A DNA stretch of 8,229 nucleotides. Source: a virus (lineage: Duplodnaviria; Heunggongvirae; Uroviricota; Caudoviricetes). The DNA lies in the IMG/VR virus record IMGVR_UViG_2778261203_000005, positions 1 to 8,229 of that record; one strand, given 5' to 3'. How positions within the stretch are numbered: the stretch's first letter is position 1; every line of letters starts with the position of its first letter. This document shows positions 1-8,229 of this stretch, piece after piece. The notes under the pieces are model-generated. The model saw nothing but the letters and a program-made list of their open reading frames with translations. It was not told the origin of the DNA and made no database searches. Both the position numbers and the translations under genes were made by a program.

Positions 1-1005
1 TTAATCCCCCGTGGACACTGCGTGGACACTTACGCCACCTTTCAGCGGATTAAGGGCCACCGCATCCTGCAGGTAATCCGGTGCAAAATGCGCATATGCC
101 ATTGTTTGCTGAATGGTTGCGTGACCAAGAATCTTCTGAAGCGCAATAATGTTTCCTCCGTTCATCACAAAATGGCTGGCGAACGTATGCCGCAGCACAT
201 GTGCAGCCTGGCCTTTTGGTAAATCGGGCTTAACTCTTTTCAGCGCCAGGCAGAATTCCCGGTACTTCACCTCAAACAAGCCGCCTGTTTCTCTGGTTTT
301 GATCGCCTCACAAACTGCCTGCGAAATTGGCACTGTTCTCTTCCGGCCATTTTTGGTTTCAAGAAACGTTACACGGTTATGAACTATCTGTTCACCACGA
401 AGCTTACAAGCTTCACTCCAGCGCGCCCCTGTGCTTAAACACAAAAGCGCAACACGCCAGTAGTCGCCCTCCAGTGTATCGAGCAATAGCGCCACTTCCT
501 TCTGTGACAGGAACGCCATTTCTCGTGGAGATACATAAAGAATAGAAATTCCCCTTACTGGATGTTCTGCATCCCAAAGACCTATTTTTTTCAGCACGGT
601 AAACATTCCGGATAACCGATTCATGTACCTGTTAGCAGATGACGGTTTCAATCCTTCAGCTATCTTTTGAGAACGCCACGCGATAATTTTCAGCTTATCA
701 AGATCCACAGCCTGCATATCAGCGCCAAGCTCATTGATTATGTTGCGCAGTTGTTTTCGGTCTTCTTCCGCCTTACGCCTGTGCTGGCCGTGATACATCC
801 ACCACAACTCAAGCAAATCATTTAGCGTTCGACGATCACGGTAGCCCTGTATATATTCCCGCTTTTCAGCGTTCGCCATGATGTAGCGTTCAGTGGCCAC
901 CGCTACCGATTTTTTGTCAAATACCTTACGCACGCGCTTTCCCTTGCGTCCGTTCGGCCTGATGTCCAGCAAATAACGACCATCTTCGAGCTTCTTAATA
1001 GACAT
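1..1005 (-). CDS. int: Phage integrase, tyrosine recombinase (P2 Int-like), 334 aa
   Basis: The 339-aa ORF on the minus strand matches P2 integrase from memory (N-terminus SIKKLEDGRY..., C-terminal motifs HVLRHTFASHF and QQTMAYAHFAPDYLQDA..NPL). Catalytic tyrosine-recombinase residues are visible (ARWSEA, H-x-x-R, Y in TMAYAHF). The ORF track starts at a TTG at 1020; the ATG at 1005-1003 is preceded by GGAGGG with 7 nt spacing and gives the P2-like N-terminus, so I place the start there. The stop is at 3-1. Confidence 0.93.
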   Translation of the reverse strand: MSIKKLEDGRYLLDIRPNGRKGKRVRKVFDKKSVAVATERYIMANAEKREYIQGYRDRRTLNDLLELWWMYHGQHRRKAEEDRKQLRNIINELGADMQAVDLDKLKIIAWRSQKIAEGLKPSSANRYMNRLSGMFTVLKKIGLWDAEHPVRGISILYVSPREMAFLSQKEVALLLDTLEGDYWRVALLCLSTGARWSEACKLRGEQIVHNRVTFLETKNGRKRTVPISQAVCEAIKTRETGGLFEVKYREFCLALKRVKPDLPKGQAAHVLRHTFASHFVMNGGNIIALQKILGHATIQQTMAYAHFAPDYLQDAVALNPLKGGVSVHAVSTGD

Positions 1006-1101
1006 TACGAAGCCCTCCAATGAACCGCTCTACAATTTCTCCAGCTTCTTTCCAGCAATAATCAGACCAGACAAAAAGCAGGTCTAACCAGTTTTCTGGC
1101 C

Positions 1102-1422
1102 TCAGCGGGATAATTTTTGGATTGTTTCGGTTGAAACGCGATCTCCCTCCGAATTGCAGGAACCATCAAGAGAGAGAGCCGGAGAAATTTGCCCGACCTC
1201 CGGCATCGTTTCATCTGTTGATAACCAATAAGCATACTTCTTAAATTTAGGGTGTTTCGTAACCTTAAGTAAGGCACCCTCTGTTACTTGCTTCCCCCTC
1301 ACCTCATAGTTAGTTACCGTCCCATAAGGCAGCCCAACACAATCCGCAAACTCCTGGCGGGTCATACCTTCTGCTTCACGAATCAGGCGAAATTTTTCAC
1401 CCATGCTTGACAAAGATGCCAT
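1102..1422 (-). CDS. C: Immunity repressor, P2 C-type, 106 aa
   Basis: The translation MASLSSMGEKFRLIREAEGMTRQEFADCVGLPYGTVTNYE...HPKFKKYAYWLSTDE..PEVGQISPALS resembles P2 C repressor as I remember it (helix-turn-helix plus the QIAPAL-like C-terminus). It lies between int and a divergent cox, as in P2. The start is chosen at the ATG 1422-1420, 9 nt downstream of GGAGGA; the ORF-track start at 1476 would add an unlikely Cys-rich leader. Confidence 0.8.
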   Translation of the reverse strand: MASLSSMGEKFRLIREAEGMTRQEFADCVGLPYGTVTNYEVRGKQVTEGALLKVTKHPKFKKYAYWLSTDETMPEVGQISPALSLDGSCNSEGDRVSTETIQKLSR

Positions 1423-1461
1423 ATCGGGCATATCCTCCATCGAAACATGCCACATCGGGCA
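1407..1461 (+). promoter_or_regulatory. Candidate early promoter Pe (-35 TTGACA 1407-1412, -10 TATCCT 1431-1436) flanked by a 15-bp direct repeat (candidate C operators)
   Basis: A perfect TTGACA sits 18 nt upstream of TATCCT on the + strand, reading toward cox. ATGCCATATCGGGCA (1416-1430) and ATGCCACATCGGGCA (1447-1461) are 14/15 identical direct repeats 31 bp apart, bracketing the -10. P2 C repressor is known to bind direct repeats flanking the Pe -10. No experimental evidence is available here. Confidence 0.5.
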
Positions 1462-1480
1462 CAAACATAAAAACACTCAA

Positions 1481-1510
1481 ATAAGCCGATATAAGCCATT
1501 TTGAGCCATT
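1481..1510. promoter_or_regulatory. Three tandem imperfect 10-bp repeats (ATAAGCCGAT / ATAAGCCATT / TTGAGCCATT) just upstream of the cox RBS; candidate Cox-binding boxes over the Pc region
   Basis: The repeats are directly visible with helical (10 bp) periodicity, lying between the candidate Pe and the cox Shine-Dalgarno (AGGGAG 1521-1526). In P2, Cox represses Pc by binding several direct repeats. The Pc hexamers could not be placed confidently on the minus strand. Confidence 0.35.
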
Positions 1511-1535
1511 CGAACGAATTAGGGAGATTACCACA

Positions 1536-1823
1536 ATGAGCGAATCAGAGCTTGGGGGGTTCATTCAGGTAGCACCATATCCACTTGAAGCGGTGCCATA
1601 TCAACTATTCGCCAAGATGATCGGCCGCAAGGAATCCACAGTCAGAACCATGATTGACGCAGCAAAGCTACCGACAATTGACTTTGTGAAACCAGGTTCA
1701 GTAAAGACGCGTGCATCAGAAAACTGGGTATATCTGCCAGCATTTAACGAAGGCATGCGCAAAGCGTTTTTTGAGCAACCGAAAGAACGCCGCGACGCAT
1801 GGTTGTTGTGGCTGGGACTTTAG
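1536..1823 (+). CDS. cox: Cox-like excisionase / early-lytic regulator, 95 aa
   Basis: The translation ...VPYQLFAKMIGRKESTVRTMIDAAKLPTIDF....ENWVYLPAFNEGMRKAFFEQPKERRDAWLLWLGL aligns with P2 Cox from memory (IPYQEFAKLIG...VRRMID.GKLPVID...EYWVYLPAWN...PKEIRDGWLMWLGL). It has a good SD (AGGGAG, 9 nt spacing) and is divergent from C. Confidence 0.88.
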   Translation: MSESELGGFIQVAPYPLEAVPYQLFAKMIGRKESTVRTMIDAAKLPTIDFVKPGSVKTRASENWVYLPAFNEGMRKAFFEQPKERRDAWLLWLGL

Positions 1824-1829
1824 TCATAA

Positions 1830-2036
1830 ATGACCAGCCATATCATCAGCGCCATTCTGACCCTTGTTTTTATTGAGATAGGCGTAATAGCGATCTATTT
1901 GTTTCGCAAGTTAACGGGACATGAAGAACGCTTTATTGAACTCAGCATTGAATATATCGCCGCTTATACCAAAGGACTTTTCCCGGCAGCTATTGGGGCG
2001 ATGTTTATAGCGTTTGTTATCTGGTTTATCGGGTGA
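1830..2036 (+). CDS. Small hydrophobic protein, 68 aa, two predicted transmembrane helices; function unknown
   Basis: The ORF starts 7 nt after the cox stop. Two hydrophobic stretches are visible (IISAILTLVFIEIGVIAIYLF and LFPAAIGAMFIAFVIWFIG). There is no clear SD. Its position matches the small ORF that follows cox in P2-like phages. Confidence 0.45.
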   Translation: MTSHIISAILTLVFIEIGVIAIYLFRKLTGHEERFIELSIEYIAAYTKGLFPAAIGAMFIAFVIWFIG

Positions 2037-2063
2037 GAAACCTGACAACCCACAACTACTGCA

Positions 2064-2183
2064 ATGAGGGTAATTATGTGTGGCATGGACAAATTGGACC
2101 TTATGTTAATTGTAATACTATCAATTAACTTCGGTTACCTCTTAAGCGGCGCAATTCTCATGTGCGGAGGCAAACGAAAATGA
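2064..2183 (+). CDS. Possible 39-aa membrane peptide (MRVIMCGMDKLDLMLIVILSINFGYLLSGAILMCGGKRK)
   Basis: Found by manual translation; it is not in the ORF track because it is too short. It has a hydrophobic core and a basic C-terminus, and its stop overlaps the next ATG (ATGA). No SD is evident, so it is speculative. Confidence 0.2.
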   Translation: MRVIMCGMDKLDLMLIVILSINFGYLLSGAILMCGGKRK

Positions 2184-2287
2184 ACCAGCAGTCCGCAAAA
2201 CGTGAAAACAATGCGATGCGATTTAATCGCAAATATTTTGAGTTCGGCCTCTATGCCGGAATAATTAAATCTGTACAGAGTCTTTAA
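2180..2287 (+). CDS. Possible 35-aa basic peptide (MNQQSAKRENNAMRFNRKYFEFGLYAGIIKSVQSL)
   Basis: Found by manual translation. Its start overlaps the preceding stop (ATGA) and its stop lies 1 nt before the ATG at 2289. Speculative. Confidence 0.2.
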   Translation: MNQQSAKRENNAMRFNRKYFEFGLYAGIIKSVQSL

Positions 2288-2288
2288 C

Positions 2289-2630
2289 ATGAAACAGCAA
2301 CGTAATTCACGCTTTCGCAATGGTGCAGAACGCCACGCTAACCGTTTTGCTACCAGTGCATCACGCAGCAACATCCGCTACAGCCTGAGTGATACACACG
2401 CAACGCCGGATGGCTACCCAGTAAAACAAATCGGCGAGCATGCCTGGCTGATTGAGAAAGCTGGAATCGTGATCCACAAATGCCCACGCAATCCGTTTAC
2501 CGGAAACCGCATTTTTGCTCTAAGCAGTGGCGACAATCAGTTCGGGCAGGATTTCACATTATACGAAGCACTTCGCACGGTTGATCGTCTGCTTCGCGGG
2601 CAAAGTTTTATTAAACAGGCTGATTTATAA
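2289..2630 (+). CDS. Hypothetical early-operon protein, 113 aa, basic N-terminus
   Basis: A non-overlapping ORF in the same orientation as cox, tightly packed with its neighbours. I do not recognise a family; it may correspond to one of the small P2 early genes (B / orf80-83 region), but this is not verified. Confidence 0.5.
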   Translation: MKQQRNSRFRNGAERHANRFATSASRSNIRYSLSDTHATPDGYPVKQIGEHAWLIEKAGIVIHKCPRNPFTGNRIFALSSGDNQFGQDFTLYEALRTVDRLLRGQSFIKQADL

Positions 2631-2640
2631 CAGGTGCTTT

Positions 2641-2928
2641 ATGACCAAAGACCATGCACAAGGTGTATTTATCCGTTTTATTGATTTTCGCGGTGAACTG
2701 TTATTACGTGCATCCGCTATTGACGGAGTGACTCCGGCGGGTAAAAACGGAGCCGACGAAGCCACTTACGTTTATCTGAACGGCACGCGACTGCTTGTGG
2801 AACTTCCGTACCAGACCGTACGAGAAATCATTAGCGAAGCTGAAAAGGCACGCCAGGTTAATGGCGATGAACCCTATATCGAAATTATTTGTATGGATTC
2901 AGAAGCTGAAATACAGAAAGCAGATTAA
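2641..2928 (+). CDS. Hypothetical early-operon protein, 95 aa (MTKDHAQGVFIRFIDFRGELLLRA...)
   Basis: The ATG at 2641 starts 10 nt after the previous stop. The ORF-track start at 2527 would overlap the upstream gene by about 100 nt in another frame, so I prefer 2641. Family not recognised. Confidence 0.55.
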   Translation: MTKDHAQGVFIRFIDFRGELLLRASAIDGVTPAGKNGADEATYVYLNGTRLLVELPYQTVREIISEAEKARQVNGDEPYIEIICMDSEAEIQKAD

Positions 2929-2939
2929 AGGGCGTTGTG

Positions 2940-3182
2940 ATGGGCAAAGAATATAAAACTCTCATTAACAAAGCACTTGAGCGTTTTTATTTTCGCTTAA
3001 GTGCATCAGGCGCTCATGCTGAACGTGCGGCCCGTGACTCATTGACCAGAGCAATCCGAAGTCTGTATGACGTGGCTTTTTACGCTGATGATCTGGATGC
3101 ACTTAACGAACTTTCCGAGCTGATCTGTGCCGCAGAATGCGGGGAACATATTGAACCGTATAAGTTGGGGAATATCGCATGA
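2940..3182 (+). CDS. Hypothetical early-operon protein, 80 aa
   Basis: The ATG at 2940 is preceded by AAAGGG with 7 nt spacing. The predicted protein is acidic and helical-looking (…AFYADDLDALNELSELICAAECGEH…). Family not recognised. Confidence 0.55.
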   Translation: MGKEYKTLINKALERFYFRLSASGAHAERAARDSLTRAIRSLYDVAFYADDLDALNELSELICAAECGEHIEPYKLGNIA

Positions 3183-3293
3183 GTATATTTATCTCATGGC
3201 TTGTTCTGATTATTTCGGTGGCCTGCGCTATTGGGATTATGCGAATTATTCATTCAATAAAAAAGATTGAACGCTTTTTCACTGGCGAATAAC
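3179..3293 (+). CDS. Possible 37-aa single-pass membrane peptide (MSIFISWLVLIISVACAIGIMRIIHSIKKIERFFTGE)
   Basis: Found by manual translation. The ATG overlaps the upstream stop (ATGA). It has an N-terminal hydrophobic helix and a basic C-terminal tail, an architecture shared with small membrane toxins and holin-like peptides. Confidence 0.35.
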
Positions 3294-3378
3294 AGAGCAA
3301 ATAAAACCACAGATTAAATAAGAAAATGTAAAAACAATCCGCATTCGCGGAGGTATTCGCACACGCCAAGGAGGCGTA

Positions 3379-3582
3379 ATGGCAATTAAGCATTTTCCTG
3401 TCGTTCGTTTTACCTCCAGAGGGCGTGAATACGAAGTCGACGAACGCCTGATTACCACAATCGACAAACACCGTTCAGAAAAGGATGCACATCACATCTA
3501 TCTCACTGACGGCACTTACTTCTGCGCCACGAATGTGGTGCGGGTGAACCTTATCCGACAGGTACAGGAGTCACGCAGATGA
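3379..3582 (+). CDS. Hypothetical protein, 67 aa
   Basis: Strong SD (AAGGAGG 3368-3374) ahead of the ATG at 3379, preceded by an AT-rich, promoter-like 85-bp gap. The stop overlaps the next start (ATGA). Family not recognised; it has one Cys only, so it is not Ogr-like. Confidence 0.6.
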   Translation: MAIKHFPVVRFTSRGREYEVDERLITTIDKHRSEKDAHHIYLTDGTYFCATNVVRVNLIRQVQESRR

Positions 3583-3794
3583 CCATTCTGGACTATATCG
3601 CCGCCAACCCGAACGCAGGTGTGAAACGCGAGATTGCAACCCTTTCCCGCGCCCTGAAAAAAGCCGATTCCGCAGCCGAACCAGAAGACGCCAGCGCACA
3701 GCAGGCGCAGGACGAAAGCAGCAAAAGTAAAAAGACAACGCGGAAGCCTGCAACACGAAAAACCACCGCGACGCAGAAGGCGAAGCGCGGTTAA
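3579..3794 (+). CDS. Hypothetical protein, 71 aa, with Lys/Thr/Ala-rich basic low-complexity C-terminal tail
   Basis: Translationally coupled to the 67-aa ORF. The C-terminus (KSKKTTRKPATRKTTATQKAKRG) looks like a histone-like or nucleic-acid-binding tail. The GC content rises sharply from this ORF onward. Confidence 0.55.
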   Translation: MTILDYIAANPNAGVKREIATLSRALKKADSAAEPEDASAQQAQDESSKSKKTTRKPATRKTTATQKAKRG

Positions 3795-3811
3795 CGACTG
3801 ACCCCGTCAGC

Positions 3812-3882
3812 GGGCGGCGTGCGCGGTGTTCCGGTTTGACTCCGTGACCGTTTACACCGCGCACCCACCGCCCGATTTTTTT
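3812..3882 (+). terminator. Candidate rho-independent terminator: long GC-rich imperfect hairpin followed by a T7 run
   Basis: GTGCGCGGTGT (3819-3829) pairs perfectly with ACACCGCGCAC (3854-3864), extended by GGGCGG (3812-3817) with CCGCCC (3868-3873) across a small internal loop. The 24-nt loop has its own CGGT/ACCG pairing. The stem is followed by GA then TTTTTTT (3876-3882). The large loop is atypical, so it may instead be a regulatory structure. Confidence 0.45.
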
Positions 3883-3965
3883 CAGGAGTGAACCCCATGA
3901 GTATGGTTGCCAGAACTGAACCAGGACCCGCAGAGGACGACATCACCGATAAAGGAGAAGGACGA

Positions 3966-4358
3966 ATGAGCAACACATTTAAATTCAGCAGCCGAAGCGA
4001 AAATAATTTGCAGGGCGTAAATCCTGATCTGGTGAAAGTGACCCGACGGGCACTGGAAATCTCGGAAGTGGATTTTGGTATCACCGAAGGGTTGCGCAGC
4101 CGTTACCGCCAGAAGCAACTTGTGGCCACAGGTAAGAGCCAGACCATGAACAGCCGCCACCTTACGGGGCATGCCGTGGATGTTGTGGCTTATATCGGCA
4201 GCCAGGTGTCATGGGAATGGCCGCTGTACGAAAAAATCGCAGCAGCATTCAGACAGGCCAGCCGGGAACTGAATATTCCGGTGGAATGGGGCGGCGACTG
4301 GAAGACCCTGAAAGACGGACCGCATTTTCAGTTACCACACGGAGCCTATCCGGCATGA
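3966..4358 (+). CDS. Endolysin, peptidase M15 family (L-alanyl-D-glutamate peptidase, T5 Lys-like), 130 aa
   Basis: Zn-binding motifs of VanY/M15 peptidases are visible (SRHLTGHAVDVV and GGDW....GPHFQL). From the ATG at 3966 the protein aligns with phage T5 endolysin as I remember it (MS.FKF........VKPELQKVARRALEL..DF vs MSNTFKF...VNPDLVKVTRRALEISEVDF). SD AGGAGAAGG 4 nt upstream. An alternative upstream ATG at 3897 (SD CAGGAG) would add a 23-aa acidic extension. Confidence 0.9.
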   Translation: MSNTFKFSSRSENNLQGVNPDLVKVTRRALEISEVDFGITEGLRSRYRQKQLVATGKSQTMNSRHLTGHAVDVVAYIGSQVSWEWPLYEKIAAAFRQASRELNIPVEWGGDWKTLKDGPHFQLPHGAYPA

Positions 4359-4762
4359 AGCTCTGGCCCACGCTGGGTGTCGCTTTCCTTCTGATTGCCG
4401 GATGGGGAACATCCATGCGTCTGTCGTGGTCGCTGGGCCGGGAGAACGCCAGAAACGAAGCGCAGGCCAGCACCCTGAAAAGTACCGCCGACACCCTGAA
4501 TATCATCAGCGCCGGGGTACAGGATATGCAGCAGGTGCTGGCGCAACTCCGCGTGGAAAATCAGCAACGCAATCAGGACGGAGAGGTAAGACGTGAACAG
4601 CTACGCAACGATATTGCAAAAGATGAATGCGCCCACGCTTTGCCTGACGCTCGTTTTACTGACAGGCTGCGCAGGCACGCAGAACGCGCCACTGCCAGCG
4701 CCGTCAGTCCGGCTTATACCGCAGACGCTGACCATACCGGTAACGCCTCCCCCCTTCCCTGA
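4355..4762 (+). CDS. Rz-like inner-membrane spanin (i-spanin), 135 aa
   Basis: The ATG overlaps the endolysin stop (ATGA). It has an N-terminal transmembrane segment (LWPTLGVAFLLIAGWG) followed by a charged, coiled-coil-like periplasmic region (QDMQQVLAQLRVENQQRNQDGEVRREQLRNDIAKDE). Its position and architecture match P2 lysB and lambda Rz. Confidence 0.78.
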   Translation: MKLWPTLGVAFLLIAGWGTSMRLSWSLGRENARNEAQASTLKSTADTLNIISAGVQDMQQVLAQLRVENQQRNQDGEVRREQLRNDIAKDECAHALPDARFTDRLRRHAERATASAVSPAYTADADHTGNASPLP

Positions 4763-4913
4763 CACTCCCACATGGGGAAATCTCGGTATATGGGGCGACC
4801 GCCTTCTGGATGCACTGGAAACCTGTAACGCGGATAAACGGGCCATTGAATTACTGGAACAGCGCAGGCTGCAACGACTGAACAACGAGGATAACAACCA
4901 TGCTGAAAACTGA
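4623..4913 (+). CDS. Rz1-like outer-membrane lipoprotein spanin (o-spanin), 96 aa
   Basis: The start lies inside the Rz gene in a different frame. It has a signal peptide with lipobox LLTGC and a proline-rich mature region (PLPAPSVRLIPQTLTIPVTPPPFPDTP) typical of Rz1 and P2 lysC. It extends past the Rz stop and overlaps the start of R. Confidence 0.72.
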   Translation: MNAPTLCLTLVLLTGCAGTQNAPLPAPSVRLIPQTLTIPVTPPPFPDTPTWGNLGIWGDRLLDALETCNADKRAIELLEQRRLQRLNNEDNNHAEN

Positions 4914-5367
4914 TTCCCTGCGTGAAGCCATGACCCGTTCATGCCGATGGTGTCAGGCCAACCCGGAAAAATTCACCATTTTCGTGGAGAGCGGCAACAT
5001 TGAAACGACAGGAGAAACCCCATCGTTTGTTTACCGCTATCAGATGGTGATGTTTGTCATGGATTACGCCGGGGAGCTGGACGACCTCACGCTGCCGCTG
5101 CTGGCGTGGTTATCCGAAAATCAGCCACAGTTGTTGCTCAACCCTGAGCGTAATCAGGACATCAAATTCTCCGCCGTTATCAATGACGATGACAGCGCCG
5201 ATCTCCTGTTTACGCTCCCCCTGCGGGAACGCGTTCGCATCACGCGCAGCAGTCAGGGCACACCGCAGGCAGAACACCTGCCGGAGCCAAAACCCCGCCT
5301 GCCCTCTTCCGAAGGCGACTGGTCGCATGTATTCCAGGATGTGACGTGGGGTGAAAGCGATGGATAA
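4900..5367 (+). CDS. R: Tail completion protein R (P2 gpR-like), 155 aa
   Basis: The N-terminus MLKTDSLREAMT and internal LPLLAWLSENQPQLL match P2 gpR from memory (MLKPDSLRRAL..., VPVLAWLRENQPD). Same length as P2 gpR (155 aa). SD GAGGA 9 nt upstream. Confidence 0.88.
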   Translation: MLKTDSLREAMTRSCRWCQANPEKFTIFVESGNIETTGETPSFVYRYQMVMFVMDYAGELDDLTLPLLAWLSENQPQLLLNPERNQDIKFSAVINDDDSADLLFTLPLRERVRITRSSQGTPQAEHLPEPKPRLPSSEGDWSHVFQDVTWGESDG

Positions 5368-5995
5368 GGCATTCACCCGCGTGGATGAAACCTTTGAGGC
5401 CATCCGCGACAGCCTGAATCAGCAGGCCATCAATAACATCGCCAGAAAGCTGGCACAGGATTTACGCCGCGCCCAGCAGGCGCGTATCCGGTCACAGAAA
5501 GCGCCGGACGGGACCGCGTGGACACCACGCAGACGCCGCGTAACCCGGATACAGGAACGCATTCGCTTTATCTGGAATAACGAAGCACGCACGCTGAAAA
5601 ACTGGCATCACGACACGGGGAAATACGGGCGAACCATCACCGGGTGGGATGAGGATAAAAACAATATCCGTACGTTTTACCGGGATGACATCGACCGTTT
5701 TCTGGAAATACGCACCCGGCGCATCAACCAGGACAGCACAAAGCGCGTCCCCATGTTCGTAAAACTGCGCACCGCCCGCTACCTGAAAGCCCGTGCAGAT
5801 GCTTCCGGTGTGACGGTGGGTTACAGCGGCGTGGCCGCACGTATTGCACGCGTTCATCAGTTCGGTGAGCGCGATCAGGTTGCGCCGGGCATTTTCACCG
5901 ATTACCCGGTACGTGAGCTGCTGGGTATCAGCCAGGCAGATGAGCGCCTGATTTATAACACGGTGCTGGGCCGGATTGCGGAGGCTGTACGGTGA
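5360..5995 (+). CDS. S: Tail completion / virion morphogenesis protein S (P2 gpS-like), 211 aa
   Basis: The N-terminal region (IARKLAQDLRRAQQARIRSQKAPDGTAWTPRRRR) and C-terminal region (AARIARVHQFGERDQVA....TDYPVRELLGIS) match the gpS family from memory. The ATG at 5360 overlaps the R stop; the ORF-track start is a GTG at 5351. It is about 60 aa longer than I recall for P2 gpS. Confidence 0.85.
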   Translation: MDKAFTRVDETFEAIRDSLNQQAINNIARKLAQDLRRAQQARIRSQKAPDGTAWTPRRRRVTRIQERIRFIWNNEARTLKNWHHDTGKYGRTITGWDEDKNNIRTFYRDDIDRFLEIRTRRINQDSTKRVPMFVKLRTARYLKARADASGVTVGYSGVAARIARVHQFGERDQVAPGIFTDYPVRELLGISQADERLIYNTVLGRIAEAVR

Positions 5996-6573
5996 GCGCA
6001 GAACTCATGCGACTGCTGAGCAATATCATCCGTACCGGGATCATCTCTGAAGTTGATGAGAAGTCCTGGCGCGTGCGCGTTCGCAGCGGCGGACTGGAAA
6101 CAGGCTGGCTGCGCTGGAACACCACGCGCGCGGGAGCCTTCAATGTGTGGCTGCCGCCATCACCCGGCGAACAGGTGGTAATTGCCTGCATTGGCGGCAA
6201 CCCGGAAACCGCCATGATAATTGGCAGCCTGTGGAGTGATGCCAGTCCGGCCCCCGGCAAAAGCCTGAAAGAAATCGTGGTCAGCGCGCCGGACGGCGCG
6301 GTGTTCCGCTACGACGCGGACGCAGGCGCGCTGAGCGCCAGCGGCATGAAAACAGCCAGCCTGCAGGCATCCGTCAGCGTGACACTGGACGCGCCCGTCG
6401 TGGAATGCACAGACCTTCTGAGAACAGCGACGCTTGACGTCACAAAAGGGGGAAAGATGAGCGGCAATATCACGCACAGCGGCGGCGATTTCACCTCAAA
6501 CGGCATCACAGTGCATACGCATAAACACGGTGGCGTGAAAGGCGGCAGTGATTCGACAGGAGGCCCGCAGTGA
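5992..6573 (+). CDS. V: Baseplate assembly protein V (spike), P2 gpV-like, 193 aa
   Basis: Motifs IRTGIISEVD, GWLRW, GEQVVIACIGG, PDGAVFRYD, SGMKTAS, GNITHSGG.TSNGITVHTHKH match P2 gpV from memory. GTG start overlapping the S stop (GTGA), with GGAGG 6 nt upstream. Confidence 0.9.
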   Translation: MSAELMRLLSNIIRTGIISEVDEKSWRVRVRSGGLETGWLRWNTTRAGAFNVWLPPSPGEQVVIACIGGNPETAMIIGSLWSDASPAPGKSLKEIVVSAPDGAVFRYDADAGALSASGMKTASLQASVSVTLDAPVVECTDLLRTATLDVTKGGKMSGNITHSGGDFTSNGITVHTHKHGGVKGGSDSTGGPQ

Positions 6574-6920
6574 CAACCCGCTACACAGGAATGAATCCGG
6601 ACGGGACGGGAAACCTGAACGATACGGAGCACCTGAAACAGTCAGTCAGGGACATCCTGACCACCCCGCTGGCAAGCCGGGTTATGCGACGGGAATATGG
6701 CAGCCTTGTGCCTGATTTGATTGACGAACCCATGAATAACACCACGCGTCTGCAATGCATGAGTGCTGCCGTGATTGCACTGACGCGATGGGAACCCCGC
6801 ATTGCCCTGGACGCTATCGACGTTGTCTGGAAAGCGGGAGGCCGCGCCGGGGTGACGCTGTCGGGTACAGTCATGCAGACCATGCAGAATGTTGAATTAA
6901 CCATCACACTGAGGGAGTAA
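6570..6920 (+). CDS. W: Baseplate wedge protein W (GPW/gp25 family), 116 aa
   Basis: MTTRYTGMN...SRVMRREYGSL...WEPRIAL...VTLSGT matches P2 gpW from memory (MTARYLGMN...SRVMRRDYGSL...WEPRVTL). GTG start overlapping the V stop, with GGAGG 6 nt upstream. Confidence 0.9.
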   Translation: MTTRYTGMNPDGTGNLNDTEHLKQSVRDILTTPLASRVMRREYGSLVPDLIDEPMNNTTRLQCMSAAVIALTRWEPRIALDAIDVVWKAGGRAGVTLSGTVMQTMQNVELTITLRE

Positions 6921-6923
6921 ATC

Positions 6924-7820
6924 ATGCCTGCCGTTGACCTTTCCCAGTTACCAGAACCCGCCATCATCGCGGAGCCTGATTTTGAGGCAATTCTGGCTGA
7001 CACAAAGGCCATGATGATTGCAGCTTATCCCGCCGAACAGCGTGAAGTCGTTTCCGCCGCGCTGGAGCTGGAATCGGAACCCCTGAACGTTATCGCCCAG
7101 ACAACAGCGTTTCGTGAAATGCTGTTACGCCAGCGGGTCAATGAGGGTGCACGCGCCTGCATGTTAAGCCACAGCGCCGGAACAGACCTGGACAACCTCG
7201 CGGGCAATATGAACACAAAGCGCCTGGTTATCACTCCGGCAACGGATACCACCGACGCGGTGATGGAGAGCGACACCTCGCTGAGACTGCGGGCGCAGCG
7301 GGCGTACGACGGCCTGAGTGTTGCTGGCCCGTCAGGTGCATACGAGTATTTTGCCCGCAGCGCCAGCGGTCTGGTGCGTGATGCGCGGGCTATCAGTCCG
7401 TCTCCGGCAAATGTGACGGTTTCCATCCTGTCTACTGAAGGCGACGGCACAGCAACGGAGGCGTTGCTTAATACCGTTCGCGCCGTTCTGAATGCAGAGG
7501 ATACCCGCCCGGTGGCCGACCGCCTGACCGTACAGAGTGCCAGAATCGTGACATGGCGGCTGAATGCAAAACTGTACTTTTACCCCGGCCCGGAATCCGA
7601 ACCTATTCTGGCCGCGGCGGAATCGTCGTTCAGGAAGTGGCTGGCTGAGCAGGGGCTTATCGGTCAGGACGTGGCGTTGTCCGCCATTGCTGCCGCACTG
7701 CATGTACACGGTGTGCAACGCGTGGAGATAATCGAACCCACACAGAATATGGCCATCAGCGACATACAGGCGGCGCGCTGTGAGTCATTTACCATCAGCG
7801 AAGGTGGGCGCAATGAGTAA
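6924..7820 (+). CDS. J: Baseplate assembly protein J, P2 gpJ-like, 298 aa
   Basis: Extensive similarity to P2 gpJ from memory (LESEPL, RQRVNE.ARA.ML, AVMESDT..RLR.Q.A..GLSVAG..GAY.Y..RSA, RPVADRLTVQSA, YPGPESEPI.AAA, LSAI.AALHV.GVQRVE). SD GAGGGAG. Confidence 0.92.
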   Translation: MPAVDLSQLPEPAIIAEPDFEAILADTKAMMIAAYPAEQREVVSAALELESEPLNVIAQTTAFREMLLRQRVNEGARACMLSHSAGTDLDNLAGNMNTKRLVITPATDTTDAVMESDTSLRLRAQRAYDGLSVAGPSGAYEYFARSASGLVRDARAISPSPANVTVSILSTEGDGTATEALLNTVRAVLNAEDTRPVADRLTVQSARIVTWRLNAKLYFYPGPESEPILAAAESSFRKWLAEQGLIGQDVALSAIAAALHVHGVQRVEIIEPTQNMAISDIQAARCESFTISEGGRNE

Positions 7821-8229
7821 TTCACTGTTACCGCCATCAGCCAGCAGTTTCATGCGTTGTGCCGAAGCCGTCGGAACGCGCATTACAGACATTCCGGTAG
7901 ACCTCAACACGCTGTGGTCGCCGGACACATGCCCGGTGCATCTGCTGCCTTATCTCGCCTGGGCATTTTCCGTTGACCGCTGGGACCGCAACTGGCCGGA
8001 GGAAACAAAGCGCCAGGTGATTCGCGATGCGTGGCTGATACACCGACACAAGGGGACCATCAGCGCACTGCGAAGAGCCGTGGAGCCTCTCGGCTACCTG
8101 ATTGAAGTAAAGGAGTGGTGGCAACTCAACGAGGAGCCGGGAACATTTCGCATTGTTGTCGGAGTACTTGATCAGGGCATCCCCATAATGCCAATGGTGC
8201 GTGGATACGCTGGTCAGATGGTGCAATAG
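7813..8229 (+). CDS. I: Baseplate protein I, P2 gpI-like, 138 aa as read (ends exactly at window edge)
   Basis: The core LW.PDTCP..LLP.LAWAFSVDRWD..WPE.TKR.VIRDA..IH.HKGTI.A.RR.VEPLGYLI.V.EWW......PGTFR...GVL matches P2 gpI from memory. The ATG at 7813 overlaps the J stop (ATGAGTAA). The product is shorter than my recollection of P2 gpI (about 176 aa); the stop TAG sits at 8227-8229, the last bases of the window. Confidence 0.85.
   Translation: MSNSLLPPSASSFMRCAEAVGTRITDIPVDLNTLWSPDTCPVHLLPYLAWAFSVDRWDRNWPEETKRQVIRDAWLIHRHKGTISALRRAVEPLGYLIEVKEWWQLNEEPGTFRIVVGVLDQGIPIMPMVRGYAGQMVQ

Follow-up and report, generated by a model that had tools for sequence, protein, structure and literature searches.

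An apparently undescribed structured RNA between genes M and L of P2-like phages

Which function has a large dyad-symmetric sequence that fills the space ahead of a string of lysis and tail genes, at a position where no promoter can be recognized? This question is raised by a stretch of 8,229 nt (IMG/VR record IMGVR_UViG_2778261203_000005, positions 1 to 8,229; called the window below), which represents a defective P2-like prophage of the P88 type (Xuanwuvirus, Peduoviridae) that is integrated beside pdxB in E. coli. The sequence is located between remnants of the late genes M (terminase small subunit) and L (head completion) and is referred to here as the M-L element. The initial annotation of the window suggested that it is a binding site for a late activator or an antitermination target rather than a simple terminator, an interpretation which is partly supported by the results below. 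The M-L element is apparently a structured RNA which has not been described before and which occurs in most of the P2-like phages examined.

Structure, conservation, and covariation of the M-L element

The true M-L gap of the window covers 102 nt (3795-3896). The initial annotation had taken 3795-3965 as intergenic space, which is correct up to position 3896; the remaining 69 nt are gene remnants, represented by 18 codons of L and the 14 nt ahead of the endolysin ATG. The dyad itself, with its perfect 11 bp arms, GGGCGG/CCGCCC flanks, and subsequent T7, is real according to both a reading of the sequence and a repeat finder. RNA folding, which had been proposed as a check, yielded -49.1 kcal/mol for the gap compared to -32.0 ± 3.4 kcal/mol for 200 dinucleotide shuffles (z = -4.98, with none of the 200 being as good), and it revealed a further hairpin (3798-3810) that had been missed. 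When the gap is folded as single-stranded DNA, z is -5.51. The structure is composed of the following parts:

3798-3810, + strand: hairpin 1, CUGAC-CCC-GUCAG, from the RNA fold; the CCCCG motif is common to the whole family
3811-3817, + strand: 5' arm of the outer helix, CGGGCGG, which includes the family-invariant GGCGG
3818, + strand: unpaired C, 5' side of a 1x3 internal loop, invariant in 59 of 59 elements
3819-3829, + strand: 5' arm of the inner helix, GTGCGCGGTGT (= GUGCGCGGUGU), an 11 bp stem found by the repeat finder and in the fold
3830-3853, + strand: variable apex with a 5 bp apical helix (3832-3836 paired with 3846-3850) and a 9 nt loop
3854-3864, + strand: 3' arm of the inner helix, ACACCGCGCAC, the perfect complement of 3819-3829 (repeat finder and fold)
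3865-3867, + strand: unpaired CCA, 3' side of the internal loop (CCA in 51 and UCA in 8 of the 59 elements)
3868-3874, + strand: 3' arm of the outer helix, CCGCCCG, from fold and covariation
3875-3882, + strand: A (3875) followed by T7 (3876-3882), the U-tract, corresponding to intrinsic-terminator anatomy in the P88-type copy

The window copy has 23 bp distributed over three stacked helices (7+11+5). It shows the features by which the family is recognized, these being the CCCCG hairpin, the GGCGG/CCGCC helix, a C opposite YCA, and an inner helix of at least 7 bp. It is located on the coding strand, with the M stop codon at 3792-3794, the element at 3798-3882, and the L start codon ATG at 3897. 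The anatomy is also that of an intrinsic terminator, with a stable GC-rich hairpin on the transcribed strand and a U-tract within 1-2 nt. A simple terminator scan accepts only uninterrupted stems with loops of 3-8 nt, and the M-L hairpin is thus not listed by it. A covariance model of the element (model R1) has a single match in the window (3792-3882, 62.6 bits, E about 1e-10), a score that is partly circular because the window sequence is contained in the seed alignment. A long-range inverted repeat (3802-3818 with 4153-4169) was judged to be due to chance.

An M-L gap of 93-113 nt with the same fold is found in P2, Fels-2, SEN8, Serratia phage KSP20, Klebsiella phage 4LV2017, Yersinia phage YenM06.16-2, Burkholderia phage KS5, Pseudomonas phage Dobby, and Acidovorax phage Acica. 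These nine reference phages were picked by homology of the L protein alone. Matches to the covariance model add three further lineages, Ralstonia phage YO035_4 and Klebsiella phages Kp4868-1 and Kp4860-2, so that the element is represented in phages of E. coli, Salmonella, Klebsiella, Serratia, Yersinia, Pseudomonas, Burkholderia, Ralstonia, and Acidovorax. The shared fold consists of the small CCCCG hairpin, the GGCGG/CCGCC helix, a C opposite CCA or UCA, an inner helix which is variable in sequence and nevertheless paired, and a variable apex.

A locus search with the L protein of P88 returned only near-identical prophages; divergent relatives were obtained by tblastn and by a DNA pattern scan of IMG/VR (CCCCG-N4-9-GGCGGC-N30-60-CACCGCC), which matches at least 120 loci. 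Among the 120 pattern matches listed, 65 are positioned exactly between M and L homologs on the coding strand. The other 55 listed matches, which are outside the M/L context, score at most 25 bits with the covariance model and were rejected as chance occurrences in GC-rich contigs. The 65 loci together with the reference copies correspond to 59 distinct elements, the L proteins of which are down to about 37% identical to those of the reference phages. Members that are independent of P88 score 41-69 bits. The complete 35.8 kb genome of P88 has one match to the covariance model, which is at the M-L gap (62 bits).

That the two arms pair is supported by covariation among the 59 elements. The pair that adjoins GGCGG/CCGCC on its outer side is G-C in 37, A-U in 11, U-A in 7, and C-G in 3 of them, and the first inner pair is A-U in 40, G-C in 12, U-A in 4, and C-G in 3. 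The seven inner pairs (i1-i7) are paired in 97.3% of the cases compared to 32%-41% after a shift of the 3' partner by 1-3 positions. A pair counter found 99.1% of the cells paired (36%-62% when slid) and 72 cells with a double change, compared to 16.8 in shuffles; none of 500 shuffles reached the observed values. The same two helices were predicted independently by RNAalifold from a plain MAFFT alignment of 40 sequences. For 13 phages that were chosen by L homology without any DNA pattern, compensatory changes are seen in 12 of 15 pairs and 96.3% of the cells are paired, in an alignment that was fitted to the covariance model and thus leans towards it. Overall, 96%-99% of the cells are paired, compared to 33%-62% in the slid controls. 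Hairpin 1 is 75% paired in a fixed register compared to 18%-56% when slid; in the model-fitted set of 13 phages, 86.5% are paired with a compensatory change in three of the four pairs. G.U pairs are far more frequent than A.C pairs (16 vs. 2), which identifies the sense strand as the folded strand. Because the arms vary and yet remain paired, with this excess of G.U over A.C, the element behaves as a folded nucleic acid of the sense strand and not as a double-stranded operator.

Divergent copies deserve mention. In phage Dobby, a compensatory swap is found within the otherwise invariant helix (GCCGG/CCGGC), and the unpaired C as well as the CCA opposite it are kept. A diverged copy from a Mannheimia phage retains the C/CCA loop, with both helices being changed (AAGGGG-C-GGAUUU...AAAUCC-CCA-CCCCUU). 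The GenBank record of Mannheimia phage vB_MhM_2256AP1 annotates a "promoter" (phage consensus) and a "rho-independent terminator" at 331-372, within the M-L gap, and both annotations overlap with the diverged copy. The M-L gap of Vibrio phage Kappa is structured and yet has no match to the covariance model; in the case of the Zymomonas element, M and L overlap and hence there is no gap. A manual count on the folds of seven reference copies gave 39-47 nt for the segment between GGCGGC and CACCGCC; as its lengths do not differ by multiples of three, a hidden coding constraint is disfavored.

No Rfam family was identified when the window and six relatives were compared to Rfam 15 (gathering score and E <= 1), with only microRNA models matching at chance level and far below the gathering scores of these models; searches for tRNA and tmRNA also returned nothing. 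The CCA bulge might invite a tRNA-like or RNase P reading. We judged this as weak, given that the adjoining pair is Watson-Crick in 59 of 59 elements, that there is no discriminator base, and that UCA replaces CCA in 8 of the 59. A description of the element was not found in the searchable literature; the 1991 paper on the P2 Q-L sequence was outside that search, and an early mention of a stem-loop in P2 is possible.

Late promoters of P2 and P88

The four late promoters of P2 (PP, PO, PV, and PF) carry TGT-N12-ACA, and PO drives the genes O-N-M-L-...-K-R-S (PMC3931495). The M-L gap of P2 is thus internal to the PO operon, and no promoter is expected there. The initial annotation had reported neither a sigma-70 promoter nor a TGT-N12-ACA dyad in 3795-3965, and both observations hold. 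A scan for -35/-10 pairs with a spacing of 16-18 nt found none in this region, the nearest sigma-70-like site being at 3978-4007. A pattern search found no TGT-N12-ACA there, and the P88 variant of the dyad (GTTCT-N12-ACAAC) is missing too; its sole match is on the minus strand with two mismatches, which is at chance level. The TGT and the ACA of the hairpin are separated by 24 nt (TGT-N24-ACA), so that the hairpin does not qualify as an Ogr dyad. Two hexamers in the apex, TTGACT (3837-3842) and TTTACA (3851-3856), resemble a -35 box. They were ruled out as promoter components because an acceptable -10 box is missing at 16-18 nt.

The genome of P88 was used to search for the late regulators of this lineage, as the source contig of the window ends 147 bp beyond the window. 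An ogr homolog, which the initial annotation had suggested to look for, is present. In P88 (NC_026014.1), an open reading frame (ORF) which is unannotated in RefSeq (about 34463-34723, + strand, after gene D) codes for an Ogr/Delta zinc finger protein (MFRCPLCG...) and matches Pfam PF04606 with 52.3 bits (cut-off 26.3). Candidate dyads of the form GTTCT-N12-ACAAC, together with AAAAGC, are found only in the divergent P/O gap (14214-14235) and in the divergent FI/D gap (33253-33274). They contain TCT-N12-ACA and are thus one mismatch off the P2 consensus, so that an exact search for TGT-N12-ACA misses them. In each of these gaps, the single dyad may serve both directions.

The claim that the late genes need their own promoter at the M-L gap is not borne out. 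The gap is internal to the PO operon in P2 and the dyads of P88 are located elsewhere, while the window has lost PO, including the P/O dyad, along with the head genes by a deletion of about 12.3 kb; this is why a promoter is missing in the window. A perfect Ogr dyad was not found between the M-L hairpin and gene G of P88 (17165-25387). Genes S (5351-5995) and V (5992-6573) overlap in the window, so that an S-V gap is not available for a separate promoter. In P88-type phages, a single promoter may thus serve a late operon of about 11 kb that runs from O to G. A dyad with one mismatch, GTTATCGTGATGCAGACACAAC, is found inside gene L of P88 (17517-17538; deleted in the window), about 120 nt upstream of X. 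It could be an internal late promoter which offsets the U7 hairpin. As a promoter for X and the lysis genes, however, it is probably a chance match, since it is devoid of the ACAACAAAAGC (AAAAGC) extension that both good dyads carry and is positioned within conserved L coding sequence.

Candidate functions of the element

The M-L element is neither a promoter nor an activator site. We consider it moderately likely that it is a cis-acting RNA of which the P88-type copies act as an attenuator within the late operon. In an intact phage, the long late transcript that depends on Ogr and starts at PO, upstream of the scaffold gene, would include the element in its interior. The sense RNA folds into the CCCCG hairpin, the GGCGG/CCGCC helix, the 1x3 loop (C/CCA), an inner helix of 7-11 bp, and the variable apex. 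In P88-type copies, the hairpin followed by A and U7 would represent an intrinsic terminator in mid-operon and thus attenuate transcription. Many transcripts would stop at the hairpin, which would result in abundant O-N-M head-gene mRNA protected by that hairpin, while a smaller read-through fraction would serve L, X, and the lysis, tail, and baseplate genes. The outcome would be a high ratio of head to tail expression. The invariant core is kept in relatives which are devoid of the U-tract, and this implies a second, conserved interaction with a factor, for which an RNase, RNA polymerase, or an RNA-binding protein would be candidates. The results above show the structure of the element, its conservation and covariation, the folded strand, the single copy, and the genomic context; we infer the attenuation by termination as well as the binding of a factor from the anatomy of the element and its conservation.

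An intra-operon intrinsic terminator that acts as an attenuator after phage head genes is known from phage T7, where T-phi follows the major capsid gene 10. T-phi and the P88-type element have in common a GC-rich hairpin of the sense strand with a U-tract, located at the border between head and downstream genes, with the latter relying on read-through. In contrast to T-phi, the M-L hairpin is long and interrupted and has an invariant helix, a 1x3 loop, and a small upstream hairpin, and different genera share its structure, including copies without a U-tract. The 9 nt that follow the stem are rich in T (0.405 in the family compared to 0.169 overall). Seven T are found in 7 of the 59 elements and a run of at least four T in 26, while 17 have at most two T; the P2 copy has CUUUUC.

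Several points weigh against attenuation. Termination is predicted from the anatomy, and the hairpin, being long and interrupted, is unlike a textbook terminator and was not flagged by the simple terminator scan. With at most two T after the stem in 17 of the 59 elements, termination is not a universally conserved function, and it does not need the invariant bases. Since no perfect dyad is found up to gene G in P88-type phages, about 8 kb of essential genes would be poorly transcribed behind a strong terminator, except if a substantial part of the transcription passes it or is helped to do so. Finally, the single-stranded DNA form folds equally well.

A more tentative proposal, which we regard as possible, is that the M-L element represents a new class of cis-regulatory RNA specific to P2-like phages. 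Either RNA polymerase or a specialized factor of phage or host would read its invariant core, which consists of the GGCGG/CCGCC helix, the C/CCA loop, and the CCCCG hairpin. Recognition of the core would then regulate how transcripts are elongated, terminated, or processed at the passage from head to tail genes in the late operon. A processive antiterminator similar to HK022 put or Bacillus EAR would be one example, and it would account for the expression of about 8 kb of essential genes past a U7 terminator without a promoter of their own.

RNA processing or stabilization is an unlikely alternative to attenuation. On this view, RNase III or a different endonuclease would cleave the interrupted helix, which measures about 20 bp. 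As a result, the head-gene mRNA would end in a 3' hairpin and the two operon halves would decay independently; attenuation could operate at the same time. Consistent with this, the helices and the asymmetric internal loop are conserved even where the U-tract is missing, and the element is present in a single copy, at the border between head genes that are needed abundantly and downstream genes that are needed sparsely. The intercistronic RNase III sites of phage T7 provide a possible parallel. They share with the M-L element an intercistronic hairpin with two stacked helices and an asymmetric internal loop, and possibly a protective 3' hairpin on the upstream mRNA. They differ in that the M-L element is confined to one site per genome, has other conserved bases, and has shorter helices in some members. 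RNase III requires neither the invariant GGCGG/CCGCC nor a CCA loop. Its sites comprise about two turns of coaxial double-stranded RNA with an internal loop; the window copy has 23 bp in its three stacked helices, and the stacked helix of Fels-2-type copies comprises only about 13-16 bp.

It is rather improbable that the element is a processive antiterminator RNA which acts on RNA polymerase in the manner of HK022 put or Bacillus EAR, the latter of which is located in an intergenic gap within a long operon. Such an RNA would confer resistance to Rho-dependent and intrinsic terminators over the 8-10 kb of the L-to-G genes. The M-L element shows a loose architectural likeness, being an RNA of about 75-90 nt with two stem-loops, a conserved bulge, and invariant bases, and no perfect Ogr dyad is found past it up to gene G in P88-type phages. 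The put RNAs, at about 70 nt, form two bulged stem-loops, and their effect reaches over more than 10 kb (PMC9378689). As with put and EAR, the M-L element would act in cis as a nascent transcript of about 70-90 nt that forms two stem-loops; in put, the bulges matter for function (PMC9378689). The P2/P4 system is known to be sensitive to Rho polarity, with the Psu protein of P4 being reported to inhibit Rho (PMC11718236). On the other hand, there is no sequence, model, or Rfam kinship to known antiterminators, and the element is located in mid-operon, about 3 kb from the promoter, and not beside it. Many copies have a U-tract of their own, which is odd for an antiterminator, and a simple scan found no candidate for an intrinsic terminator downstream on the plus strand of the window.

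We give little credence to a plain Rho-independent terminator of the head operon, the conservation of which would merely reflect inherited sequence. The GC-rich stem with A and U7 and the family-wide enrichment of T after the stem are as expected for a terminator. However, members with flanking L proteins of only 36%-50% identity still share the same loop geometry and about 20 invariant nucleotides, 17 of the 59 members are devoid of a U-tract, and the essential downstream genes have no other recognizable promoter. In this respect the initial annotation, which had considered the element to be more than a simple terminator, is corroborated, as the architecture and the invariant bases are kept across distant P2-like phages, including lineages without a U-tract.

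A signal in single-stranded DNA, which is very improbable in our view, would be a hairpin on the sense strand that is displaced during rolling-circle replication by gpA and that serves for lagging-strand priming or primosome assembly, as modeled on the intergenic hairpins of phages phiX174 and G4. By analogy with gene A of phiX174, the displaced strand is presumably the sense strand, which is the strand found to be folded. The strong fold of the DNA form (z = -5.51) and the single copy in the P88 genome are also consistent with this explanation. A role as RNA is favored by the T-rich tail 3' of the stem and by the fixed site between the M stop codon and the L Shine-Dalgarno sequence. In addition, 16 G.T pairs are tolerated although these are costlier in DNA hairpins, and the element is apparently retained where replication modules differ.

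A double-stranded DNA dyad that is bound by a late activator and serves as a late promoter of a type other than that of P2 for the lysis and tail genes, as suggested in the initial annotation, is disfavored to the point of being negligible: although the gap has dyad symmetry and is devoid of a canonical promoter, the arms co-vary and stay paired rather than being conserved (G.U 16 vs. A.C 2), the lineage has an Ogr/Delta activator with dyads elsewhere, the P2 gap is internal to the PO operon, and T7 is only 14 nt from the L start codon. The Ogr-dependent late promoters of P2, with TGT-N12-ACA near -55, belong to the same phage family and late circuit and are also dyad-symmetric; in the M-L element, however, the spacing is N24, the arms co-vary, and the gap is internal to an operon, with the P88-type dyads being located in the P/O and FI/D gaps.

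P2 and related phages form a classical model system and count among the commonest prophages of Proteobacteria. Late control in these phages is usually described purely by the four Ogr-dependent promoters. The analysis points to an additional control point after initiation, apparently unnoticed so far, exactly where the head genes give way to those for completion, lysis, and tail. It extends from phages of enterobacteria to those of Burkholderia and Pseudomonas and is represented by a single-copy element with invariant bases and support from covariation. The element is small, well defined, and easy to mutate, so that its function is directly testable. For annotation, the outcome is a covariance model of what may be a new RNA family.

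Deletions and gene remnants in the window

The window originates from contig NMNN01000016.1 of the E. coli draft genome GCA_002468085.1 and represents a doubly deleted, holin-less defective prophage rather than an operon with an unusual promoter. Its first part (1-3611) comprises the integrase, the C repressor, cox, and early genes, and is 99.7% identical to the early region of P88_4B11. The region 3606-3951, which consists of the 3' end of M, the M-L gap, and the 5' end of L, is 99%-100% identical to P88-like prophages and 100% identical to the best matches among E. coli prophages.

The first deletion, with the jump at about 3606-3611, removed about 12.3 kb (in P88_4B11 coordinates). Judged from the annotated gene order of P88, the rest of the early operon including replication gene A was lost, and also Q (portal), P (terminase), the PO region, O (scaffold), N (capsid), and most of M. 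The second deletion (junction 3951/3952) removed 948 bp, corresponding to the rest of L, X, and the holin gene. Relative to P88-like phages, the two deletions are clean and in frame, and no holin is left in the prophage. The prophage is defective for replication and head assembly, and probably also for lysis. The features around the M-L element are:

3579-3794, + strand: fusion ORF of 71 amino acids, gp49'-'M, with an in-frame join at about 3606-3611
3884-3899, + strand: Shine-Dalgarno sequence AGGAG (3884-3888) and start codon ATG (3897-3899) of the head-completion gene L
3897-4358, + strand: L'-endolysin fusion ORF of 153 amino acids (Pfam Peptidase_M15_4, 45.5 bits)

The 71-residue fusion starts with about 10 codons from an early winged-helix gene (gp49 of P88_4B11), which are followed by the last 62 codons of M, and it ends at M's own TAA (3792-3794). 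The L'-endolysin fusion consists of L codons 1-18 (3897-3950) and five linker codons, for which the terminal part of the holin gene is read in a different frame, followed by the M15 endolysin. The native endolysin retains its own Shine-Dalgarno sequence (3953-3957) and ATG (3966); 3952-3965 are the last 14 nt ahead of this ATG, and everything from 3897 onwards is in frame with the endolysin.

In the window, the hairpin stands between the Pe-driven early operon, which ends with gp49'-'M, and the genes for L'-endolysin and R-S-V-W-J-I. The position of the element ahead of the endolysin is an accident of deletion and not a designed regulatory arrangement. For the L'-endolysin and R-S-V-W-J-I to be expressed here, early transcripts would have to pass the U7 hairpin. 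Both deletion junctions are absent from 5,426 complete E. coli genomes, and both are found on two public contigs. The 153-residue L'-endolysin fusion is also given by the gene caller of the source assembly.

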